A DNA stretch of 64,000 nt from a virus. Its lineage: Duplodnaviria; Heunggongvirae; Uroviricota; Caudoviricetes; Crassvirales. Shown here one piece after another: positions 227 through 20,619 of this stretch; within the stretch, counting starts at the first letter, position 1, and the number at the start of each line of letters is the position of its first letter. The stretch is from positions 14,504 through 78,503 of IMG/VR virus record IMGVR_UViG_3300031952_000007. One strand, given 5' to 3'. The notes beneath the pieces are model-generated. The model was given only the letters and a program-made list of their open reading frames with translations, made no database searches and was not told the origin of the DNA. Both the position numbers and the translations under genes were made by a program.

Positions 227-2500
227 TTAATTTTCTACTAATTCTTTAACAGTTTCTTCTGTTATTGCCATTGTGTTATATCTATCTAGATTTACTTTCT
301 GTTTGTGATATTTAAATAGATCACTCATTGCATCAAGAAATTCTTTAGATGGAGTGGTATATGCTGTAAATAATCCAAGCATAGTGTTTATGAACGGAAG
401 TCTTTCAAGAGTGCTCTTCACTTCTACATAAAAAGAATATATTTCTGGATCAAATAGATTTTGCTGTTCTGCTATTTCAATCATTGCTATATAAATAGCT
501 GACTCACCTCTAGTGTAATTATCATCAGCATATTTATCTAGTGTTTGTAACTTGTGATACAACTCTGAAGAAACATCTGATAATACATTCATTTTATCAA
601 ATGTTGATCTGTGCTTAGTTCTTAACTCAGCAATCAATTTACCAGTGACTATTCTTCTAAATGCTTTGTGTGTTCCGTCCATAAATTTATCTAATTTAAT
701 CCAATTGTGTACATTGATTTTTTCTAAGTTCTTAAGTTCTCTATCAGAAAACTGAACAAATCTAATTTTATCACTTTTTACAGTGGTGAACAAAAGATCC
801 ATTCTTTTAGCATCTTCTGATCCACCATAAACTGTAAGTTGTTTGGTTTTATGAAGATCCTCAAGATTATACACTTCACTCACCCATTTACAATTAGAAC
901 CAGAAACATCTCTTAACAACTTTGTAGCCTCTTTACCAATAATCTGTCCTTTCAATTTAACTCTTCTATCTTTAGATATGGAAACTTTAACTTTCTTTCT
1001 AGCATCAATAAAAGATTGAGGAACAACTAGTGCATCAAGATCTATCCATGTTTTTGTGTACATTTCTATAATAGCATGAAACTCCTTAATTGCAGCTCTC
1101 CACAAACTCTTGTTAATTTTCTCAAGTCCCAATAGAGTTACATAAGTGCTGTAATTAGATAGTCTTCTCAAACTACCAAGAGTGAAATTAGAAGATTTCT
1201 TCATAAATAATGTCTTCTTAGACCATCCCATAGGAGCTATACTCTTAGTGTATTCCTTCTTAGTTACAGGAACCCTATCAGTGTATTTGTATACAGAACT
1301 AACAGAATTATTATCCTGATACCTATCTATACTAGTTTCCCAACTACCTCTACATTCTTTGAACTTACCGTTCTCAATTTTAAAATTAACAGTGTATTCT
1401 CCCAAGATCCACTCTCTATTTCTATAGATTGTTTTCATATCAAGAATGTTAATTCCCTTAAGTTTTGGTTCTGTAAATTTAACTGTAGCATAATTATCTA
1501 TTTCTCCTGCATCAAATTTTACATCTCCAACAGTGACAAACTTCTTTTTATTAGCATAGAAGTTCATAACCGCCTGGATATCTTCTGTATCTTGAGAGAG
1601 TTCATTGTATTTATTTACAAAGAAATCAGCCACCTTTGCTATTTTATCAAGAATCAATGCTTTAGCCTCTTTGGTATATCTAATACTTTCCCTATTTGGT
1701 GTAGGAAACAATCCATCCATAAGACTAAATCTCAATGCTACAGGAAACTCTATTGTATCAATCCCAATCTTCTCGAAATCAATAGGATAGTAGACATTAT
1801 CAAGACAAAGATGTAATTTATCTGTACTAGATAATTCTGAATACTGAAAATGCTCACTTCTGAATATCTTAAATTTATTATCAACTTGACAATCAAAATA
1901 TACATTCTCGAAATAAGCAAGTTGCTCTGGTATCTTTGCATTAAAATAACTTCTATCAGAATAAGTTACAGGAACAATAACTTTAACACCATTCTCTTCA
2001 AGGGTGGTTTGTTGGTACAATAGATCAATGCTGTTTGTGTCTTCTCCTTCGTACATCATATACTTGCGTTCAACACCATCCTTACGACATACAAAATAGA
2101 AACTAGAACTATAAGCTAGAGGAGCTTTAAAGCCCAAGCCCATCATACCTAGTTCTGTGTTACTGTTACGCTTTGTACTCTTACCATACTTACTAATAAT
2201 ATTTCTAACATCATCTGCATCTAAGCCAATACCAAAATCCTCAACACTAAATTCATAATTGTCTTCTTTGTTAATACCAAATTTTACAACTATAGGTTTG
2301 TCAACCCCAGCTCTTCTATGACTATCAAGTGCATTAGATGCACATTCTCTGATAGTGGAGCCTATTGAATCTGAATAGAGATTCTTACTTAACATCTGCA
2401 TCAATATCTGAGCAGAATCTAAGTCTAATGACATTCCAATTGAATCTTGTGATGTTCCTTCCTCAAGGATGGTGGCTTCTGTTTGTTTTTCTAAAATCAT
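227..2500 (-). CDS. Hsp90/HtpG-like GHKL-family ATPase domain protein (757 aa)
   Basis: N-terminal Bergerat-fold motifs in Hsp90-like order and spacing: N-box ECASNALDS, G1 box DFGIGLD followed by ...NIISKYGKSTK, G2 box GMMGLGFKA. The remaining ~550 aa have no recognisable motifs. Confidence 0.6.
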   Translation of the reverse strand: MILEKQTEATILEEGTSQDSIGMSLDLDSAQILMQMLSKNLYSDSIGSTIRECASNALDSHRRAGVDKPIVVKFGINKEDNYEFSVEDFGIGLDADDVRNIISKYGKSTKRNSNTELGMMGLGFKAPLAYSSSFYFVCRKDGVERKYMMYEGEDTNSIDLLYQQTTLEENGVKVIVPVTYSDRSYFNAKIPEQLAYFENVYFDCQVDNKFKIFRSEHFQYSELSSTDKLHLCLDNVYYPIDFEKIGIDTIEFPVALRFSLMDGLFPTPNRESIRYTKEAKALILDKIAKVADFFVNKYNELSQDTEDIQAVMNFYANKKKFVTVGDVKFDAGEIDNYATVKFTEPKLKGINILDMKTIYRNREWILGEYTVNFKIENGKFKECRGSWETSIDRYQDNNSVSSVYKYTDRVPVTKKEYTKSIAPMGWSKKTLFMKKSSNFTLGSLRRLSNYSTYVTLLGLEKINKSLWRAAIKEFHAIIEMYTKTWIDLDALVVPQSFIDARKKVKVSISKDRRVKLKGQIIGKEATKLLRDVSGSNCKWVSEVYNLEDLHKTKQLTVYGGSEDAKRMDLLFTTVKSDKIRFVQFSDRELKNLEKINVHNWIKLDKFMDGTHKAFRRIVTGKLIAELRTKHRSTFDKMNVLSDVSSELYHKLQTLDKYADDNYTRGESAIYIAMIEIAEQQNLFDPEIYSFYVEVKSTLERLPFINTMLGLFTAYTTPSKEFLDAMSDLFKYHKQKVNLDRYNTMAITEETVKELVEN

Positions 2501-2505
2501 AATTT

Positions 2506-2853
2506 CTAGTTTTTCTTTATTAAAATAATTTGTCTGTGTTCTAAATCATAAAATCTTGTATGATTATGATCCTCTGGAGTAAATAGATAAACTGTTTCTT
2601 TGTACGTACGAGTTGCACCATTATATACGTATGTTACATTTTCTTCTTCTCTTCTTGTAGAACATTTTACAGCTTTATATATTGGTTGCTGTGTTCTCCA
2701 ATGTAATTTATCACCAGTGACTGGTTTCTTTATTACTCTCAAATATTTAAAATGAGATTGGCAGGAGATTAATATTTCATCTCCCACCTCCAAATCTTGA
2801 ATTTTTACTTCCTGCATAATTTTTAATTTTAGAATGGTAGTTTTTCTAACCAA
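2506..2853 (-). CDS. hypothetical protein
   Basis: 115-aa ORF, co-oriented, overlaps the UDG-like gene start by 25 nt. Confidence 0.4.
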   Translation of the reverse strand: MVRKTTILKLKIMQEVKIQDLEVGDEILISCQSHFKYLRVIKKPVTGDKLHWRTQQPIYKAVKCSTRREEENVTYVYNGATRTYKETVYLFTPEDHNHTRFYDLEHRQIILIKKN

Positions 2854-3545
2854 TCTATGTGAAAATTATTATTACCTTTTAAAATCTTGTTCACTTTACC
2901 AAATACACCCTCTGTATCCCATTCTGCACCTTTGTATGAAGCAGAAGCTGGATGACTTACAGCAAATGACCAACTCATTGGTTGTACATATTTCTGATAT
3001 TTAGCAGCATCTTTACCAAGAAAGATAATAGGAGCTCCTGTATATGCCAAAACTTCTTCTAATAGATATTTGGTAAATGGTTCCCAGAGATCAATATGTG
3101 AACCTGCTTTGTTTATTTCTGTTGTCAGTGCTGCATTAAGCATAAGTACACCTTGTGATGCCAAATAACTAACATTAGCACTCTTGAATGTTTCTAGAGA
3201 TAATCCTTCATACAATTCTCTTTCTATACCTCCATAAAATTGTTGTAATGATGGTTGTAATTCTCCTGTATTACTACAGCCCATTAACAATCCATCAGCT
3301 ACAGGTTCTCCATGCTTCATTGAGTGATAGGGGCACATACCCATAATAATCACTTTAACCTCATCTAGTGGTGTCGCTTTGAAACATTTATATACATTAC
3401 ATGAAAGAGGAGCAATTGTCTTGCCCCTCTTACTTTCATGCTTCAGAAATTTATAGATGTTATCACAAGCTTCACTCTCAATGAATGGCTGTATTTTATT
3501 ATGCCAGCTCTCATGAAACTGATCTTTAAACTTCTCAAAATCCAT
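2829..3545 (-). CDS. family-1 uracil-DNA glycosylase (UNG) homolog with non-canonical active-site residues
   Basis: Colinear with UNG over its whole length: VKVIIMGMCPYH vs VKVVILGQDPYH, GVLMLNAALT vs GVLLLNAVLT, IIFLGKDAAKY vs VFLLWGSYAQKK, VSHPASAS vs TAHPSPLS, FHIDW vs PIDW. Catalytic Gln-Asp is replaced by Met-Cys and the wedge Leu by Ala, while the Asn and His are kept. Confidence 0.75.
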   Translation of the reverse strand: MDFEKFKDQFHESWHNKIQPFIESEACDNIYKFLKHESKRGKTIAPLSCNVYKCFKATPLDEVKVIIMGMCPYHSMKHGEPVADGLLMGCSNTGELQPSLQQFYGGIERELYEGLSLETFKSANVSYLASQGVLMLNAALTTEINKAGSHIDLWEPFTKYLLEEVLAYTGAPIIFLGKDAAKYQKYVQPMSWSFAVSHPASASYKGAEWDTEGVFGKVNKILKGNNNFHIDWLEKLPF

Positions 3546-3546
3546 A

Positions 3547-4353
3547 TTACATTATATTTTCTTGATCAAAACTCATTTCTAATTGACTGAATCTTGATGG
3601 GTTAAAACTTATTTCTAACTCTTGTTGAGGAGAAACTAAAATACCACTCTCATTAACAAAGAATTTGTGTGCATCAATATGACTATTCATCCAGAATATA
3701 GGACTTGTATCCTTCATAGCATAGGTTGTATAGTTATACAGTTCCCATAAGCTATCTGGAGCATTGTAATCATGTGTAGGAGCTTGTAATTCTTTCTTAA
3801 CAACACTTAATTGATGAGAGTTAATAAGACCTTCTTCAATATACATTCTACCAATCAACTCTGCTCTAGTACGCTTAGTGATTTCAATCTGCTTCATTGC
3901 TTCTCTTTCACCTTGCATTCTTGTAAATGCATCACCAGCTTCTTTGATGTATTCAGAGATTGCATTAGGAGTAAATTCTTGAATACCACCCATATGCTTC
4001 TTCTTGAATGCTCCCATATCACCTGATACAGAACCATTTTGACAAATGAATATACGTGTACCAATAGCAAACTTCAATGTAAGTTTCTTATTGTAGCTAT
4101 TCTGCCAGCCAATCTGCAATTGCATTTCTTGATCAGCTACATTACCAATACTAAATCTACCATTAGCAATCTGTCCAGCATCACAAGCTGAATAAGTTTC
4201 TTTGTCTAATTTAAACCCAGCTTTCTCAATACCATTTAATGTAAGATCTATTAGCTGAGAATGGCTAATTGGTTTGTAGGTTCTTGTCTGTGTAGGAACT
4301 TCTGTTGATGTAAGTAATTCCTTAGTTGTGTTGTACGTTCTTTTTAAGTCCAT
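3547..4353 (-). CDS. hypothetical protein (268 aa)
   Basis: Long co-oriented ORF with a stop/start overlap with the next gene; no motif recognised. Confidence 0.5.
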   Translation of the reverse strand: MDLKRTYNTTKELLTSTEVPTQTRTYKPISHSQLIDLTLNGIEKAGFKLDKETYSACDAGQIANGRFSIGNVADQEMQLQIGWQNSYNKKLTLKFAIGTRIFICQNGSVSGDMGAFKKKHMGGIQEFTPNAISEYIKEAGDAFTRMQGEREAMKQIEITKRTRAELIGRMYIEEGLINSHQLSVVKKELQAPTHDYNAPDSLWELYNYTTYAMKDTSPIFWMNSHIDAHKFFVNESGILVSPQQELEISFNPSRFSQLEMSFDQENIM

Positions 4354-5351
4354 TAAATTAATTTTTTGTGTTTTAAATAATTTTCAATTGCATCCATTCC
4401 ATGAGCTTTTGCAAGATCAGCCCAATCTTTGATTCCTTCTATTAGATACTTACGGGGAACGTTAGCATAATCAAATTCAAATATCTTAGTTATTTGTTGT
4501 GAATTTGCAACACCTGTAACATCAGAATCAAAGCTTAAGATTTGTCTATTAGAGTTTGCTTTAATATAATCAACATTATCTTTAGAGAAGCAACCAATGC
4601 CTTCATTTTGAACTGCACAGGTACAAGGAAATAGCTTTTTGATCACCATATAATCCTTCTTACTCTTATTGATAAATGCTACATCACAATCTTTTATATC
4701 TGACATGCCATCCATTGTTGTGATGGGAACATTATTTGGTACCCATTTATTCTTCTTATCAGCAAATGGTCTGTAAATCTTCCAATGGCCATTGTAATAA
4801 TAACCAAATCTCAATTCATTTTCCTTTAATGCAAACAAACTCTTGTTCAAATATAGCTTCTTTATAGCATATACATTATTGTCTCTAAGATCTTGTATGT
4901 CTTGATGATAGGTATTCCAATAGGCAAGTTCTTCATTAGTAAACTTTCTTGTAATTGCTTGAATCAATGAATATCTCTTCTCTACGTTCTCTGGTTGTTT
5001 GTATTCAGCAATTATCTTCTTGTAATCCTTCTCACTACTATTTGTAAAACCCAACCCAAAATCCCTATCAATCATCTCCATAGCTTCTACAAAAGAAATA
5101 TTGTATAATAGCTGTACAAAATCAAAGCAACCACCTCTCTTGTTTGTGTCTGAGAAATCAATAAATGATATATAACCATTCTTATTACCTATAATGAAAG
5201 AAGGATTGTTTTCATTCCTGAATGGAGAATAAGTTATCCTATTCAGCTTCCAATCTTTATTAGGCATATACCATCTGAATATGTCATACTCACTAATCTT
5301 AGTGAGGATTTCTTCTGGTGAAAGTCTACATTTCTTTTTTCCTGCTATCAT
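4353..5351 (-). CDS. primase-like protein (TOPRIM-type) with degenerate CHC2 zinc-finger region
   Basis: Residues ~40-95 (ITYSPFRNENNPSFIIG...GGCFDFVQLL) are colinear with the DnaG CHC2 finger (CPFHxExTPSF...CFGCGxxGxxIDF) but lack the Zn ligands. C-terminal region has a TOPRIM-like E..G (AVQNEGIG) and DxD (ILSFDSDVTG). Confidence 0.45.
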   Translation of the reverse strand: MIAGKKKCRLSPEEILTKISEYDIFRWYMPNKDWKLNRITYSPFRNENNPSFIIGNKNGYISFIDFSDTNKRGGCFDFVQLLYNISFVEAMEMIDRDFGLGFTNSSEKDYKKIIAEYKQPENVEKRYSLIQAITRKFTNEELAYWNTYHQDIQDLRDNNVYAIKKLYLNKSLFALKENELRFGYYYNGHWKIYRPFADKKNKWVPNNVPITTMDGMSDIKDCDVAFINKSKKDYMVIKKLFPCTCAVQNEGIGCFSKDNVDYIKANSNRQILSFDSDVTGVANSQQITKIFEFDYANVPRKYLIEGIKDWADLAKAHGMDAIENYLKHKKLI

Positions 5352-7000: not shown

Positions 7001-7213
7001 TTAATCCTTCGAAGATACAACAATTTTGTCAGATTTCAAAATTGTTGTCTTAGTATCCATAAGGTTTGGATCTTTAATAAGTTGCTCATAAAGATACTGC
7101 ACTTCATCAAGATTTTTACCAAAACTACTGTCAATCATCTTACCACCTATAGTGACATAATAATAAGCTGGCTCATTAAATTCTTCTCTTTTAACTAATT
7201 CAATTTTCTTCAT
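7001..7213 (-). CDS. hypothetical protein (70 aa)
   Basis: Small co-oriented ORF with a 4-nt overlap with the helicase exon. Confidence 0.4.
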   Translation of the reverse strand: MKKIELVKREEFNEPAYYYVTIGGKMIDSSFGKNLDEVQYLYEQLIKDPNLMDTKTTILKSDKIVVSSKD

Positions 7214-7983
7214 ACATACTTAATTTTTGATTGATTTAACATTGATAGACTCTCTACAATTTTCTTTAGTTCTGGTTTCTCATTCAAACATAAAATGTGC
7301 AAGTCAGCAATCTTTCCATGATAGTCTAATTTAATAGCTCTATTTAGGATTTGAGAACTCTCTTCAGCATTATATGTAAAGTTGGTGAGGATTACAGAAT
7401 CAAGATCTGGATAGGTTACACCAATCTTTCCCATTGCTGCTAATGCAAGATGATTTATCTCTCCATTCTTGAAGTCTTGAAAATTACCATCATTCTTAGA
7501 CTTACTATGATAGGAAGGACAACCAACCTCATCAGCAACCTTTGCAAGACCTGTGAACACTAACACTCGTTTATCTGACAAATCGTTTAGAAGAGCCTTT
7601 AAATAGCTCATTTTGGCAATTGATGATTGAGAGAGTCTGTTTCTAGCTAATGCTAAATGCATAAAGTTTCTACCTTCTCTTTTCAACTTTTCAATCACCC
7701 AAGAATAACCATCATATTTCTGTTTCTCTGTCTTTTCTTTACCATTCTTGTCTATTGTAACTTTCTTTGTGTCTAGATTGATAAGATGTACAGAGATTTG
7801 ATAGTCTGCTAATATACCATCCTCAATTCCTTGATCTGTGGTGTAGCTTCCTATCTCTTTAATCTCTTCCCATTGCTCAATAGTTTCTGATGATACAGTT
7901 CCTGATAGACACAATGTGTACGTACAATTATCAATTATCTCTTTACACAATTCTCTTTCATTCTCACTTGCACTGTGGAATTC
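7210..7983 (-). CDS. SF2 helicase, 3' exon (helicase C-terminal domain)
   Basis: Frame is open upstream of the annotated TTG 'start' (7950) back to 7983, giving EFHSASENERE-LCKEIID... Carries helicase motifs III (LSGT), IV (VLVFTGL) and V/VI (ILTNFTYNAEESSQILNRAIKL). Joins exon 1 to restore the DExH box. Confidence 0.65.
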   Translation of the reverse strand, partial: EFHSASENERELCKEIIDNCTYTLCLSGTVSSETIEQWEEIKEIGSYTTDQGIEDGILADYQISVHLINLDTKKVTIDKNGKEKTEKQKYDGYSWVIEKLKREGRNFMHLALARNRLSQSSIAKMSYLKALLNDLSDKRVLVFTGLAKVADEVGCPSYHSKSKNDGNFQDFKNGEINHLALAAMGKIGVTYPDLDSVILTNFTYNAEESSQILNRAIKLDYHGKIADLHILCLNEKPELKKIVESLSMLNQSKIKYV

Positions 7984-9044
7984 CGTTTATGTTAACTTTT
8001 AGTTTCCTAAAAGACCAGACTATATCTTATTACTAAATTAAAATTTTTTGTCAGACCAATAATAACCTCCACATTTACCTTTTCTTTTAATAGCCTCAAA
8101 AATTCCTGATGGATATTTACAAGGATTTATTATATTAAAAGCTTCAGTAACAGAAGAAAAAACTTGTAATAAATTTTTATTGCAATCATACATATATACA
8201 ATTTTAGATTTATTTATATAACTCTTGTTATAATTATTAGATAAATAATCTTTTTCATATAAAATTATATGATTTCCTGCAGTTATATTTGTCATCTTTT
8301 TTGAAAGAACATTGCTAATACTAGTGATTTTAACATTAAGGTTTTTAGCACACTCCCCTATAGATGAGAAAGTGTTTATATAATCATAATTTAAAGATAA
8401 TACTACAACTTTTTTTTTATGACCATCCGAAGATCTTTGTAAACTATCTTTAGTGCGATCTACTATTAATCCTTTTCCACCTTCTCTAATATTAGTTAAA
8501 TTATTATAGTTATTTATCCAGTATTTTTCTTTTTCTTCCCAATTGTTTTTATCACATTCTTCAATTAATGTAATAATAGGATACAAGTTTTGTTTTTTAA
8601 GAGTTTTTATCCAATTACAAACATGAGTTTTTACATTTTTTGTAAAAGCTGCACATTTATGTTGACTTAATCTTTGAGACAACCTTGATACTGTAACACC
8701 AACATATCTAATTTCCTTTGTTATAGGATTAGATAAACTATAAATTTTATATGTTCTTTCCATAATAGTATTATAATGAATTTCACTACAATACTACATA
8801 AATTAATTTAATAATCCAAGCGTTTCATGTTAAATAATTATTAACATTACTCTACTCCCTTTATACAAAATATTGTATAGGTTTCGATAGTCGTTGAACC
8901 TTATTCCCATTAGGAATCTTGGCTGCTGATTGTCCAATTCTTATCTCTTTTACTATAATATAGTCATTACTGCTATATGGAGTGTATAAGACTCTAAGGA
9001 GTTTCCAGTCAATTAACTTGGTTTAAAGTGAACTTATATAATCA
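7984..9044 (-). mobile_element. group I intron (IA2-like) inside the SF2 helicase gene, carrying a GIY-YIG HEG
   Basis: Minus-strand core elements: P-like AAUUGACUGGAAACUCC (+8992..9017), Q AAUCAGCAGCCAAG (+8920..8938), R GUUCAACGACUA (+8888..8903), S AAGAUAUAGUCUGG (+8010..8030). P6 and P9 hairpins present. The internal guide sequence GUUCAC can pair with the exon end GUGGAU with a U.G wobble at the 5' splice site. The 3' end is a G in ...ACG|GAAUUC. Confidence 0.7.
8038..8763 (-). CDS. GIY-YIG homing endonuclease (intron-encoded)
   Basis: N-terminal YKIYSLSNPITKEIRYVGVT (GIY...YVG), then R..H, EKYWINNY and NIREGG motifs. Lies between R and S of intron 1 (P8 position). Confidence 0.8.
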   Translation of the reverse strand: MERTYKIYSLSNPITKEIRYVGVTVSRLSQRLSQHKCAAFTKNVKTHVCNWIKTLKKQNLYPIITLIEECDKNNWEEKEKYWINNYNNLTNIREGGKGLIVDRTKDSLQRSSDGHKKKVVVLSLNYDYINTFSSIGECAKNLNVKITSISNVLSKKMTNITAGNHIILYEKDYLSNNYNKSYINKSKIVYMYDCNKNLLQVFSSVTEAFNIINPCKYPSGIFEAIKRKGKCGGYYWSDKKF

Positions 9045-9350
9045 ATCCACTATAAAGAAATCAAACTCGTATTCTGTATATTTCTTTACAGAACTAAAGT
9101 TTACATATGTAATGTTGGGATTATTATATCCCCACAGCTCACATTCATTCATCCAGGTATCTCTAAGCTTGTTGTCTGGATAGGCAATTAGTAATGTACA
9201 ATCATAATCAAACTTCTTTTTAAGAATCTCAATTGTGGTTTTACATTTACCAAACCTCATTGCAAGATTTAGATATCCAGACTTATTCTTTTTGTAGAAT
9301 GTCAATGATTTCTTTACAAATTCATCCTGCAGTTTGTCTTGTACATTCAT
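9045..9350 (-). CDS. SF2 helicase, 5' exon (motifs I-II)
   Basis: Walker A-like AMRFGKCKTT; ends ...DFFIVD immediately before the intron. Spliced product reads ...FFIVD|EFHSAS..., i.e. the DExH box is completed across the junction. Confidence 0.65.
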
Positions 9351-9610
9351 TATACGTATTTTATAACATTACCTTCTGCATCTTTTAATGCAGTTACACT
9401 AAACAAACCATCATAATGCGTCATGATATTAGCATGAATACCATTTAAATCTGCTCCTGTTTGTACTCCCCACATCTGTAAGAACATATAGAATTCCTGT
9501 TGCCCTAACATTTGTTTATGTTTAGAAGCATCAAAGTTCTCTCTATAATGTTCATAGAGAATATTCGTGGGTGCATTACCTTTTAAGTGTATATAAGTTT
9601 CTTTGTCCAT
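9350..9610 (-). CDS. hypothetical protein (86 aa)
   Basis: Co-oriented ORF; ATGA overlap with helicase exon 1. Confidence 0.45.
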   Translation of the reverse strand: MDKETYIHLKGNAPTNILYEHYRENFDASKHKQMLGQQEFYMFLQMWGVQTGADLNGIHANIMTHYDGLFSVTALKDAEGNVIKYV

Positions 9611-12102: not shown

Positions 12103-13083
12103 TTAAAACATGGAGATTTGATTTGGATTTACAACCACTTTTCTCTTCTTACCTTCTGTCTGAATCTTACTAACTATTGTATTACACTTCTCAATGTAAT
12201 ATTCATAATTGATATTATCCATAGGATGATCTTTAGTTAAGTGGTTACAAACTGTGCACATCCACTCACCAGCTTCCACTTGTGATATTGGTGGAGCATT
12301 AGTTACACAGCTATCGTTTTTTACTTTAAGAAGCTTCACTCCTTTATTTGATACATAATAACGAATGAGTTTATTATAGATAAACTTCTCACCTGTGCCT
12401 CTAACTATACCCTCATAATGGAAATCTCTCGAAGCTTTTTGTCTTAACGCAAAGTCATAGATGTTAGAATGATTCCTAACAGTATGCTCAATAGGTATAT
12501 TATTAACAAAATATTGTTCGAGAGCCAATGGTACAATCCTGGCTGATTTGTTTTTATGTAATTCAAAATCTGTGAGGAAATCCCCTTTCTTTTTAATTTC
12601 GCCATCTGTTTTAATTGCTAAGTAGTCATTAACTGTTGAGAATATAATCTTTTGATAGTCTGTTCTTTCCAATTCATAACTTGTCAGCTCTTGCCACCAA
12701 GTATTAATTGAATTCATTAGAGCTAAGTCTGTCTTTTTAACCATTATAGTTACACCATCTGTATTAGCAGATATAACATGAATATTATTAGTTTCATACT
12801 TCTCAATCAACATCATTAGACTCAACTCACCAGTGATACAAGTGAACATTGTAAGTTGCTTATCATAAATCCAGCTCTGCATGTCAGAACTCTTGCCATA
12901 AACACTGTTTACAGCTAATTTAAGAGCACCTACAATACCCTTGATCTTCTTATCCTTCTTAGCTAATGGTTTAAGCTCCAACCTCTTATCAAACATTTGC
13001 TTGTATCCATTAAGAAACTCTTTACCTAGATGTCCTGGATATTGCTCATTGTTAATGATGATGGCTGGATAGTATGCATCCCA
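12103..13083 (-). CDS. family-B DNA polymerase, 3' exon (polymerase motifs A-part, B, C)
   Basis: KLAVNSVYGK (Kx3NSxYG, motif B) and ISANTDGVTIM (DTD-type motif C). The annotated start is a TTG; the sequence WDAYYPAIII at the exon start completes motif A. Exon boundary is approximate (+/-7 nt). Confidence 0.7.
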   Translation of the reverse strand, partial: WDAYYPAIIINNEQYPGHLGKEFLNGYKQMFDKRLELKPLAKKDKKIKGIVGALKLAVNSVYGKSSDMQSWIYDKQLTMFTCITGELSLMMLIEKYETNNIHVISANTDGVTIMVKKTDLALMNSINTWWQELTSYELERTDYQKIIFSTVNDYLAIKTDGEIKKKGDFLTDFELHKNKSARIVPLALEQYFVNNIPIEHTVRNHSNIYDFALRQKASRDFHYEGIVRGTGEKFIYNKLIRYYVSNKGVKLLKVKNDSCVTNAPPISQVEAGEWMCTVCNHLTKDHPMDNINYEYYIEKCNTIVSKIQTEGKKRKVVVNPNQISMF

Positions 13084-14041
13084 GCCTCTGTAATCTTTCA
13101 ATTACAGCTGGACTATATCATCATTTAACTTTTAATTCTTTTTCCCAAATAAACCCATACATTGAAGGTTTGTTACCTGAACACACTGAATATATTTGTT
13201 GCCATTTATAAGAAGGATTTATTTCAGTTATTTCTTTTACTGAACCCCATTTTCTTATAAACTGTCTATCTTTTGTGTACTGATTGATATAATATTTAAC
13301 AGTTGCTTCTGAAACTTTTTTTGCCATTTCTTTAGTAGCCTCTGGATTATCTTTCCAATAAGTATGACTAACTTTTAGTCTTTCTTTTGGATCTTTATAT
13401 CTATTAATCTGAGCTTCACTGAGTTTTTTTCTTGTTTCTTTTGAAACAATGCAACTAGTTTCTGAATCTAATCTAATATTATATCCTTTGTCTCTATTAG
13501 TACATTTATAAACTCTTTGCCAATATAATTCTCGTTCCTTTAACTGGTCTAATTGTACAAATTCTATTACAAAATATTCAAAGTTTTCTCTTCCGTATTT
13601 ATGCCAAGCATTTATAAAATGGTCATTTTCATCTTTACTTCTTTTATTAAGAAGATTAATGTGTTGTCTGATTCTTCTATAAATACATTTAGCTTTTCCA
13701 ATATAAACTTTGCTATTTGTTTTATTTCTTATACAATATATTCCACTTTGGTCTAAATGTTCTTTTCTATTCAATTTCATGCTACAAATATATGTAATTA
13801 CATGGATAGAACCAAGACACTTATATTAATTAATTGTTAAATGTTCCCTGTTTAGTCTCTGAACCTTGATCTATTTCACTATAGACCCTTGGCTGCGGAT
13901 TGTCCAATCTTAATCTTTTTTACCATACCTGAGTAATTACTTCAGCCATTATATGTATTTCTACTATAACTTGGTAGATTAAGCTCTAAGGAGATCCCCG
14001 TCAATTTAAGGAATTTTAGTTACGCCATAGTATTAACGAAA
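13084..14041 (-). mobile_element. group I intron inside the DNA polymerase gene, carrying a GIY-YIG HEG
   Basis: Minus-strand P AAAUUGACGGGGAUCUCC (+13985..14010), Q AAUCCGCAGCCAAGGG, R GUUCAGAGACUA, S GAUGAUAUAGUCCAG (+13110..13123) and a P9 hairpin (+13088..13107). The heptamer TGGGATG occurs at both exon edges, so the exact splice point is ambiguous within 7 nt. Confidence 0.65.
13121..13780 (-). CDS. GIY-YIG homing endonuclease (intron-encoded)
   Basis: SGIYCIRNKTNSKVYIGKA (GIY...YIG), then R..H, FEYFVIE and ELYW motifs. The stop codon overlaps the S element of intron 2. Confidence 0.8.
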   Translation of the reverse strand: MKLNRKEHLDQSGIYCIRNKTNSKVYIGKAKCIYRRIRQHINLLNKRSKDENDHFINAWHKYGRENFEYFVIEFVQLDQLKERELYWQRVYKCTNRDKGYNIRLDSETSCIVSKETRKKLSEAQINRYKDPKERLKVSHTYWKDNPEATKEMAKKVSEATVKYYINQYTKDRQFIRKWGSVKEITEINPSYKWQQIYSVCSGNKPSMYGFIWEKELKVK

Positions 14042-15020
14042 CATCCCAATCAATGATTTCATACTCATCATCAGCATCAAATGTTTTAGGCTTGTTCTCT
14101 GTATGAAGACCACCTTTCATGAAAGAATACACATTATTATAAAAGTTTATGCTCTCTTTAAAATCATCCATCATCTTAAGCTTAACCTTCTTAATCTTTT
14201 TCAAGAAGTCTTTTAGCTGTGGAGTTTCAAACACTACATAATCAGCAATACAATGTCTAACGAAGATTTCCTTCCTGAACTTACCTTTTTTTGGTAATTG
14301 ACTGTATTTGATGTTCCTCTCTTGACAATAGAACTTCTTAATCATCTCATCACCAATCTTACTGTCAGAATAATTCAAACATGGAATATTAAACTCTTCT
14401 TGAATGTCCTGTCTAAGTTGTATCTGATTGTTTCCTTTGTATAAAGGATGTTCACAGTCACCAATAGTAATCTTGTAGAACTCATAAGTGGCCATAACAT
14501 CATTCCTACAATAGTCTTTAGTCATTTGAATTTCTTCATCTGTCATATCAACCTTTGTATGATGAATAGGCATCTCTTCAATGTTCTCAAGATCCATCTC
14601 AAACTCCAGTCTCTTTAGACTCACCATACGATTCTTATTATCGTAGTGGTTCACCTTGAATACATCAATTTGTTTAAGACTAAGATCAGCTTCTCTGTAT
14701 TTAGGCATTACATCATAATTAGCATCATGAATAACATCTCCTGCATTAACAGCAATCTTAGCACAAATATCAAGATAGCTTAAAGAACCCCATTCTTCAT
14801 AGCTTTTAAGGATGAATTCAATCACTTGACTGTCAAACCTAAGATTGTTATACCCAACCCAATAATGGTCCTTATAAGCCTCTGTGAACCTCACAAAGCT
14901 ATCAAGATTATTAGCAAGCTTACTCACTTCAAACTCAAAATATATGTCTGTTTTTACATCATAAACTCCTACAAGAAATAGTTCTTGCATAGTTTCTATG
15001 TCAAATATTAATACTTTCAT
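14042..15020 (-). CDS. family-B DNA polymerase, 5' exon (3'-5' exonuclease domain)
   Basis: Exo I LIFDIET, Exo II YNNLRFDSQVIEF, Exo III YCRNDVMATYEFY. Ends ...YEIIDW(D) at the intron; inferred spliced junction is ...EIIDWDAYYPAIII (motif A, DxxSLYPSII-like). Confidence 0.7.
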
Positions 15021-17680: not shown

Positions 17681-17716
17681 ACTTACAAAGAACCACTGCC
17701 CATGTTGCCATGAGGA

Positions 17717-17880
17717 TTAGACTATATCATCACCTGTTCTAGGTGCTGGACGCTTATTCCTGTTATTAAGAAGACTTTACTTCTCAGGTAGTCGTTGAAC
17801 CTTCTTAGAATGTATTCTAAGCTTGGCTGCTGATTGTCCTAACTTCACTGTTAGGAGTTCCAGCAATTCATCCAGTTTTT
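17717..17880 (-). mobile_element. group I intron core (third copy), no homing-endonuclease ORF
   Basis: Minus-strand P GAUGAAUUGCUGGAACUCC (+17854..17873), Q AAUCAGCAGCCAAGC (+17822..17839), P6 hairpin cuuagaaugcauucuaag, R GUUCAACGACUAC (+17789..17804), S GAUGAUAUAGUCUAAUC (+17720..17732). Elements are in the same order and near-identical in sequence to introns 1 and 2. Confidence 0.5.
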
Positions 17881-17966
17881 AATTAAGTATTCCTACTTAA
17901 TGGGTCCAATTCCCAAACCCTGGTCTTTTCAAGACCCAATAAATCCATTTTTACAAGCTTAGATCT

Positions 17967-17994
17967 TGTCACAATTATTTTAAAAATTGTGACA
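17967..17994. repeat. perfect 10-bp inverted repeat TGTCACAATT-n8-AATTGTGACA
   Basis: Read directly in the sequence; AT-only 8-bp spacer attttaaa; sits in the ~700-bp noncoding stretch between intron 3 and the terminator at 18346. Confidence 0.8.
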
Positions 17995-20007: not shown

Positions 20008-20619
20008 TTATTTAAAATTAATTACGCATATATAATACCCAAGGTTGTGCTTTTGTATTGATACTCCAGCTTGTGTATAATTTGGTGATGTTATAGCTAA
20101 TCTATGGCCATATTTGGGATTGCCTATATCAATAAGAAAATCCATAATAATATCTACAGCTTCATAGCTGTCATAAGATATAACCTCACACAAATACGAC
20201 ATTCCTTGAATATCCTCTTTTGTAACTCTATCGTGTCCAAATTTATTATAACTTGCAAAAGCATGTACTAATGCACTATTGTAAGCTATAGCATCTGGAT
20301 ATATGAGTCCTAATGGTTGAACAGTTTGCATATAAGGAATTAGATTTTTATACTCTATTGTATTCCTTACAGTCTTCCATCTCTTAGGAAAATCATATTG
20401 CTTAATAACTGTATTTCTAAATAGATTAGGACTTGTACGCATACAATTTAACACCCATATAACATCTCTTTCTCTTTGTGTCATGTACAAATCATCTTTA
20501 GCTGTATTACATGTATTATATTTAACATCATCCCATTGAGCGTCATAAAGACTCAATGGATTCTGAGCAGATGTATATAATGAAACAATAAGAGCACATA
20601 ACAATAAACGGTATTTCAT
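20008..20619 (-). CDS. secreted CAP/SCP/PR-1-superfamily protein
   Basis: Signal peptide MKYRLLLCALIVSLYTSAQ. C-terminal GHRLAITSPNYTQAGVS...YYICVINF resembles the CAP signatures GHYTQVVW and YYVCNY. Confidence 0.55.
   Translation of the reverse strand: MKYRLLLCALIVSLYTSAQNPLSLYDAQWDDVKYNTCNTAKDDLYMTQRERDVIWVLNCMRTSPNLFRNTVIKQYDFPKRWKTVRNTIEYKNLIPYMQTVQPLGLIYPDAIAYNSALVHAFASYNKFGHDRVTKEDIQGMSYLCEVISYDSYEAVDIIMDFLIDIGNPKYGHRLAITSPNYTQAGVSIQKHNLGYYICVINFK

Follow-up and report, generated by a model that had tools for sequence, protein, structure and literature searches.

A family-1 uracil-DNA glycosylase homologue without the general-base Asp in the replication module of a Crassvirales phage

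The window analysed here, a 64,000-nucleotide stretch of the Crassvirales record IMGVR_UViG_3300031952_000007 (positions 14,504 to 78,503 of that IMG/VR record), is tailed phage DNA with a G+C content of 32% that carries terminase, portal and major head genes on its plus-strand half. On the minus strand, an open reading frame (ORF) at positions 2829–3545, running from ATG to TAA, encodes a 238-aa protein related to family-1 uracil-DNA glycosylases (UDGs) and referred to below as UNG-like; the plus-strand translation of the same interval is riddled with stops. The protein matched the Pfam UDG family (PF03167, E = 4e-7, gathering score exceeded) and, in a phmmer search, 46 distinct family-1 UNG chains in the PDB (top E ~3e-18), several of these alignments being near full-length (e.g. 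query residues 8–233 against residues 3–221 of the B. subtilis UDG). Its AlphaFold2 model, built with 46 homologues, had a mean predicted local distance difference test (pLDDT) score of 85.9 and was matched by Foldseek to UNG crystal structures with template-modelling (TM) scores of 0.72–0.79. All sequence and structure matches (PDB, Foldseek) were family-1 UNGs, bearing out the end-to-end alignment with family-1 UDGs that an earlier note on this DNA had proposed. By profile comparison the protein is also a clear member of PHROG 12143 (E = 2e-32, residues 8–232 corresponding to profile positions 4–227 of 227). Judged by these alignments, it is a true family-1 UNG homologue that lacks the general-base Asp. 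The cut-offs of all five NCBIfam ung equivalog models were missed (e.g. 129.4 vs 162 bits for NF003592 and 104.2 vs 185.75 bits for TIGR00628) and, given in addition the Asp and Leu features described below, the protein should not be classified as an orthologue of ung.

Few DNA-repair enzymes are regarded as more conserved than the family-1 UNGs, in which the GQDPYH motif is nearly invariant. In the UNG-like protein, motif A (G69-M70-C71-P72-Y73-H74, encoded by GGT ATG TGC CCC TAT CAC at 3324–3341, minus strand, as are all codons given here) aligns with G62-Q63-D64-P65-Y66-H67 of E. coli Ung, the Cys71 codon (3333–3335) standing at the place of the water-activating Asp64. Of the uracil pocket, Tyr73 and Asn137 (3135–3137, within LMLNAALT; the uracil-recognition residue N123 in E. 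coli) are present, and the uracil-stacking Phe (E. coli F77) is replaced by Met88 (3282–3284). Motif B (H198-P199-A200-S201-A202-S203, 2937–2954) corresponds to H187-P188-S189-P190-L191-S192 of the E. coli enzyme; this HPASAS version retains the leaving-group His198 (H187) and has Ala202 in place of the Leu wedge L191. The residues singled out in the earlier note (GMCPYH, Phe to Met, Leu to Ala, with the pocket Asn and the catalytic His kept) all agree with this alignment. Directly after motif B lies Tyr204, a candidate substitute wedge; the close clade has Tyr here without exception, and most of the wider family has Tyr, Arg or His. In comparison with E. coli Ung and human UNG2, the protein has the same fold, aligns end to end at ~25–30% identity and keeps the motif-A Pro/Tyr/His, the pocket Asn and the motif-B His-Pro, but differs in the Asp-to-Cys, Gln-to-Met, stacking Phe-to-Met and Leu wedge-to-Ala changes and in a four-residue insert after PYH. 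This insert belongs to residues 75–90 (approximately 3276–3323, minus strand), the low-confidence part of the AlphaFold2 model, in which many family members show three features absent from cellular UNG: the insert itself, which is predicted to form a beta-hairpin, the Asp84 of an "ADG" motif, and Cys90. Two further roles were considered for residues in and around this stretch and rejected: a disulfide or metal site formed by Cys71 with Cys27, Cys54 or Cys90, as Cys90 occurs family-wide whatever residue is found at position 71 and Cys27 and Cys54 show no co-variation, and a relocated catalytic acid at Asp84, as this residue tracks the four-residue insert and not the loss of Asp71.

In the 120 metagenomic homologues closest to the protein (68–99% identity), motif A reads GMCPYH in 112, GLCPYH in one, GMAPYH in six and GMSPYH in one, motif B is HPASAS or HPASAA in 119, and His74 is found in all 120, including those with Ala or Ser at position 71. 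Across 17 related IMG/VR loci the Cys71 codon is either TGC or TGT, and the use of both codons indicates that Cys is held by selection. The survey of homologues for this Cys suggested in the earlier note therefore gave 113 of 120 carriers; neither the Cys nor the Ala is an oddity of one sequence, and the Cys, Met and Ala substitutions are conserved in the clade and are neither sequencing nor strain oddities. The six clusters with Ala71 form a single diversified sub-lineage (mutual identity 81–92%) that is nested within the Cys clade, its closest Cys-type protein being 81–86% identical; one cluster has 177 member sequences and another is encoded on a contig of 114 kb. The sub-lineage has retained His74, Asn137 and His198, and its persistence implies that the side chain of residue 71 is not indispensable and that a thiol is favoured only.

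When 1.84 billion cluster representatives were searched exhaustively with HMMER to cover the wider family, 143 relatives were obtained at E<=1e-30, and the family alignment was made from the best 150 relatives, which are 31–59% identical to the query and of which 133 are full-length. At the Asp site these 150 representatives carry D (61), C (24), S (22), E (16), A (5), G (5), N (4), K (3) and others. Conservation among the 133 full-length sequences is 97% for Pro72, 98% for Tyr73, 95% for Asn137 and 87% for His198, and Asn137 is present in 140 of all 150. The position of the stacking Phe (Met88) is F in 75, M in 38 and L in 31 representatives. At the Leu-wedge position Ala is the commonest residue (90 of 150), also among the Asp-keepers (47 of 60), so that the Leu-to-Ala change is no sign of inactivation particular to this protein, the sense in which it had first been taken. 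In a neighbour-joining tree calculated without motif A, the Asp site required at least 48 changes of state, compared with 3–6 for Pro72, Tyr73 and Asn137 and 15 for His198; the tree is rough and these counts are indicative. All 81 sampled members (the window protein and 80 metagenomic representatives) matched PHROG 12143 and no other PHROG at 1e-5; the label of this family is "unknown function".

The proteins of cultured phages in PHROG 12143, among them crAss001 gp74, Flavobacterium FpV4 gp54 and Cellulophaga phi14:2 g042, resemble the window protein in homology, in an HPA-type motif B and in placement among replication/recombination genes of Bacteroidota phages, where they are annotated "uracil-DNA glycosylase". 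They differ from the GMCPYH clade of the window in motif A: crAss001 gp74 and the proteins of DAC15, cr111_1, cr108_1 and FpV4 keep the Asp as GQDPYP together with the HPA-type motif B, and phi14:2 g042 has Glu in motif A, with the motif-B His changed to Asp. crAss001 gp74 fell below all five NCBIfam ung cut-offs and FpV4 gp54 above two. The cultured carriers infect Bacteroidota and one close homologue is encoded on a 112-kb contig binned with Sediminibacterium, from which a host assignment is weak. In several loci (L025, containing crAss001 gp74–77; L027; L005, containing FpV4 gp50–54; L038; L040) the family gene adjoins DUF2201/"metalloprotease" genes with or without a ThiF-like gene, and in L006 (phi14:2) and L028 (cr108_1) it adjoins a cluster of amidoligase, glutamine amidotransferase and COOH-NH2 ligase genes; the window has neither the DUF2201 genes nor the amidoligase cluster. 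When one representative each of the Ser, Glu and LQDPYP types was used as the query, scans of IMG/VR gave no matches, and the genomic context of Ser- and Glu-type members comes from a few short contigs.

The spread of residues at position 71 bears on the suggestion in the earlier note that a thiol at the catalytic position might trap the abasic sugar. Here, a Cys71 activated by His74 would attack C1' once uracil has left, and the resulting covalent thioglycosyl adduct would be either a UdgX-like trap or an intermediate. The Cys does occupy the position beneath C1' that is taken by Asp in UNG, as placed by the alignment, it recurs in 113 of 120 close homologues with both synonymous codons, and 46 of the 150 family representatives have either Cys or Ser, usually with a His at +3. 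In addition, UdgX provides an example of a UDG-fold protein that traps DNA covalently, as cited in PMC10201439. The otherwise intact Ala71 sub-lineage with its six clusters, the sister lineages with Ser, Glu, Gly or Asn and the tolerance of G, N and K across the wider family nevertheless speak against an obligate nucleophile at this site. The mycobacterial UdgX shares the UDG fold and binds uracil-DNA without turnover, as the window protein might, but its scaffold resembles family 4 and its cross-link is made by a His that a dedicated loop carries; this loop is absent here and the candidate nucleophile can be replaced by Ala. Covalent chemistry of this kind is accordingly disfavoured and, in our estimate, highly improbable. 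The same very small likelihood is assigned to the broader proposal that a Cys/Ser71–His74 pair might replace the Asp-activated water in a sizeable branch of the family, with a covalent (thio)glycosyl intermediate or self-trapping on the abasic sugar; if true, the pair would be a family-1 counterpart of UdgX by which the phage replisome tags or blocks uracil sites.

The UNG-like gene lies next to a primase inside a replication gene block, the location given in the earlier note. In transcription order, this minus-strand block consists of genes for a family-B DNA polymerase (interrupted), a 210-aa protein, a DnaB-like helicase, a superfamily 2 (SF2) helicase (interrupted), a Sak4-like ATPase, a 289-aa protein, a DnaG-type primase, a DUF932 protein, the UNG-like protein, a 103-aa protein and an rIIA-like ATPase. 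The primase gene (4353–5351, minus strand) matched PHROG 12622 (DNA primase, E = 3.7e-34) and Zn_ribbon_DnaG (E = 1.3e-4, at 22.1 bits under the Pfam gathering threshold of 24.9 bits), and it is the constant neighbour of the UNG-like gene in the clade, in FpV4 and in locus L038. Between the two genes lies the upstream neighbour encoding a 268-aa DUF932 protein (3547–4353, minus strand; Pfam E = 1.9e-7), whose stop codon ends 1 nt before the ATG of the UNG-like gene, the two genes thus appearing to be translationally coupled. DUF932 is found in 15 of the 17 related IMG/VR loci that cover the primase-to-UNG-like flank and is absent from two, in which the primase gene abuts the UNG-like gene, as it directly does in the Asp-keeping FpV4. 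The DUF932 protein has more than 1300 metagenomic homologues, and its AlphaFold2 model (pLDDT 59) is too poor for a fold assignment. Downstream of the UNG-like gene are a small ORF (2506–2817, minus strand; 103 aa from the ATG at 2817) without a family match and weakly conserved in relatives and, past it, the gene for the rIIA-like GHKL ATPase (227–2500, minus strand; PHROG 612, E = 1.3e-53, with HATPase_c matches). In relatives, rIIA is followed (e.g. locus L012, 13455–14921) by an rIIB-like gene and then by genes for an HNH protein, a PD-(D/E)XK exonuclease and ribonucleotide reductase, an order that resembles a crAss-like replication/repair block.

The related IMG/VR loci and two contigs of metagenome-assembled genomes keep this gene order so far as each extends, and a comparable module surrounds the gene of a Cys-type relative at 48% identity. 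In the 17 IMG/VR loci, identity to the window is 67–74% for the UNG-like protein, 64–73% for the primase, 74–79% for DnaB and 47–52% for rIIA, and purifying selection acts on the UNG-like gene. The family-B polymerase, which is the putative partner of the UNG-like protein, is encoded at 12103–15020 (minus strand; PHROG 1252) and was identified by the motifs FDIET, KLAVNSVYG and NTDG in its translation and by tblastn matches to genes annotated polymerase B; its C-terminal half gave no PDB or Pfam match.

Given this replication module and the family-B polymerase encoded nearby, the comparison with poxvirus D4 made in the earlier note, and likewise one with herpesvirus UDGs, is reasonable. Poxvirus D4/E4 and herpesvirus UDGs are active enzymes in which the catalytic Asp is retained. 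As in the window, poxvirus D4/E4 and herpesvirus UL2/BKRF3 are viral family-1-type UDGs encoded in trans alongside a family-B polymerase, and the pox- and herpesvirus UDGs scan the template before the polymerase reaches it (bioRxiv 10.1101/2025.03.26.645540). The difference from D4 is that co-encoding with a polymerase is all that is seen here, no A20-like bridging protein having been identified in the window. The best BFVD matches were giant-virus and herpesvirus UNGs, with an entomopoxvirus protein at TM 0.75 and the salmon gill poxvirus UDG, a chordopoxvirus D4 homologue, at only TM 0.48. By analogy, the protein may work as D4/E4 or herpesvirus UDGs do; membership in those groups is not supported. 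A purely architectural version of this comparison, in which the protein would be a processivity or bridging subunit of the replisome like vaccinia D4 in its non-enzymatic role and base recognition would be irrelevant, could account for the fixed position of the gene beside the primase and the co-encoded polymerase. It would also have a parallel in the catalytically degenerate UDG domains of N4-like PolA, for which a non-enzymatic role has been proposed and a processivity role speculated (PMC10201439). These N-terminal domains are phage replication-associated UDG folds without canonical catalytic residues as well, but they belong to family 4, are fused to a family-A polymerase and have lost pocket elements wholesale, whereas the window protein is a free-standing family-1 protein of 238 aa in a family-B polymerase module and has lost only the Asp. 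Since an unused pocket should drift as it has in the N4-like domains, and Tyr73, Asn137, His198 and Pro72 are among the most conserved residues of the family, we consider a purely architectural subunit unlikely.

A different kind of association was found for a Ser-type member of the family. NADAR is a family of DNA de-ADP-ribosylases/N-glycosidases. In protein P0139 (locus L037, 46–1203), a NADAR domain (Pfam E = 1.3e-14) is fused to a UNG-like domain with the motif GLSPYH, and a 723-aa Marseillevirus "NADAR domain protein" has a UNG fold (BFVD, TM 0.78). Such fusions may link the family to the reversal of DNA base modification, and they could be accommodated by a role in counter-defence, in which uracils in phage DNA arising from dUTP misincorporation or a host deaminase would be coated against host UNG, or another damaged base would be handled as part of an anti-defence kit. 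Tight binding of U-DNA by an engineered inactive UNG (PMC4756853) would suit the coating function. The NADAR fusion was, however, seen on one 1.3-kb contig only, the constant neighbours of the UNG-like gene are replication genes and not defence-related, and no deaminase, UNG-inhibitor or dUTP-related genes were recognised in the window, so that counter-defence seems improbable to us. Pfam and PHROG scans of ~20 small early ORFs likewise revealed no dUTPase, thymidylate synthase, deaminase or base-modification enzyme, and neither a second UDG nor a tRNA was found in the window. A phage genome containing uracil or 5-hydroxymethyluracil was rejected, as no supporting genes were found and the kept Tyr73 argues for plain uracil specificity.

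The interpretation to which we lean, tentatively, is that of a replisome-linked reader of uracil in DNA whose hydrolysis is strongly slowed and which would be either a tight binder or a slow single-turnover glycosylase. What appears to be selected in the family is the uracil pocket, the fold and the place in the replication module, and not the general base, which favours such a reader. The protein would be a virus-specific offshoot of family-1 UNG that forms part of phage family-B-polymerase replication machinery. Deoxyuridine would be flipped from the DNA into a uracil-specific pocket (Tyr73, Asn137, His198), the gap in the helix being filled by a residue other than Leu, perhaps Tyr204, and the Asp-to-Cys change would make the hydrolytic step slower by orders of magnitude, with a long-lived uracil-DNA reader or a slow single-turnover enzyme, and not a fast repair enzyme, as the outcome. 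Uracil sites might in this way be marked, held or shielded at or ahead of the fork; the likely partners would be the nearby family-B polymerase and the primase, with the UDG–polymerase complexes of pox- and herpesviruses and the UDG–PolA fusions, which likewise scan template that the polymerase has yet to reach, as the model. Uracil binding, reduced chemistry, contact with polymerase or primase and the Tyr204 wedge are the parts of this scheme that we infer. The human UNG variant D145N/H268N binds U-DNA specifically, with wild-type specificity and no excision (PMC4756853), and UDG modules, some of them without catalytic residues, are tied to viral replicases (PMC10201439; bioRxiv 10.1101/2025.03.26.645540).

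Motif A does not vary residue by residue, a pattern that would also suit a working UDG with a remodelled, not disabled, active site, engaged in ordinary uracil repair of phage DNA. In such an enzyme His74 would position the water with the assistance of Cys or Ser, and His198 would stabilise the leaving group. Motif A shifts as a block, from GQDPYP in most Asp-keepers to G[LM][CS]PYH[TS], and an acidic residue 71 and His74 are anticorrelated (Fisher p = 2.6e-8, uncorrected for phylogeny). His74 is kept in all 120 close homologues, even next to Ala or Ser at 71, at least one of D/E70, D/E71 and H74 is kept in 112 of the 133 representatives, the pocket residues and His198 are conserved, and the Asp-keeping crAss001 gp74 and FpV4 gp54 lie in comparable replication/repair blocks. 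On the other hand, the anticorrelation may reflect shared ancestry, neither an acidic residue nor His is found at positions 70, 71 and 74 in 21 of the 133 representatives, most of which still have Asn137 and His198, and the D-to-C, F-to-M and L-to-A changes co-occur at catalytic and base-flipping residues. In E. coli and human UNG, moreover, an Asp-to-Asn change causes a loss of three to four orders of magnitude. We therefore regard a working glycosylase as possible, if rather unlikely, and as a serious rival. The statement of the earlier note that the variant is unlikely to be a normal glycosylase is fair; a total loss of activity is unsupported, and His198, Asn137, Tyr73 and His74 are all kept.

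Several points weigh against the uracil-reader interpretation. The four kept residues just named would be expected equally of an enzyme that still cuts, and the anticorrelation within motif A hints that His74 may take over the activation of water. UDG families 2, 3 and 5 have Asn or Ala where UNG has this Asp and still excise bases, and the wild-type UNG reaction is fast enough for turnover on the scale of minutes to remain after a 10^3–10^4-fold loss. Gene order is the sole ground on which a physical association with the polymerase is proposed. Structure prediction, which the earlier note had proposed, recovered the UNG fold but not the geometry of the active site, as the pLDDT of the AlphaFold2 model drops to 57–61 precisely across residues 71–90. 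In the literature searched, we found no biochemical work on any member of the family and no description of the variable Asp site.

Two genes of the replication block are interrupted. In comparison with the uninterrupted gene of locus L021, the polymerase gene is split into segments for residues 1–328 (15020–14037) and 325–649 (13083–12106), separated by an insert of ~950 nt with a homing-endonuclease ORF (13121–13780); the break lies beside a DxxSLYP-like motif, and Rfam gave no intron at this insert at the gathering threshold. The SF2 helicase gene (7213–9362, minus strand) is split into 9362–9015 and 7983–7213 relative to the uninterrupted gene of locus L012, the insert of ~1 kb containing a GIY-YIG endonuclease ORF (8038–8763). 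A full-length group I catalytic intron was detected at 17698–17972 (minus strand; Rfam RF00028, 96 bits, E = 6e-24) amid small unannotated early ORFs. Also in the early region, the ORF at 20008–20619 (minus strand) gave a match to the CAP (cysteine-rich secretory protein) domain (E = 2.9e-5), a seemingly unusual feature in an early gene of a phage.

The UNG-like protein belongs to a large and environmentally abundant phage family, relatives of the crAss-like gut phages among them, in which the uracil pocket is kept and the general base varies between D, C, S, E, A, G and N. An annotation as "uracil-DNA glycosylase" is consequently not safe for these phage genes. As read from the sequences, this pattern points to a selected function that would depend on recognition of uracil at the replication fork and not on fast excision. 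If such a function is confirmed, it would extend the partnership between UDG and replicase known from pox- and herpesviruses, and from the UDG–PolA fusions, to phage proteins encoded in trans, and it would provide natural scaffolds for uracil sensors as well as a natural set of active-site variants for dissecting UNG catalysis.

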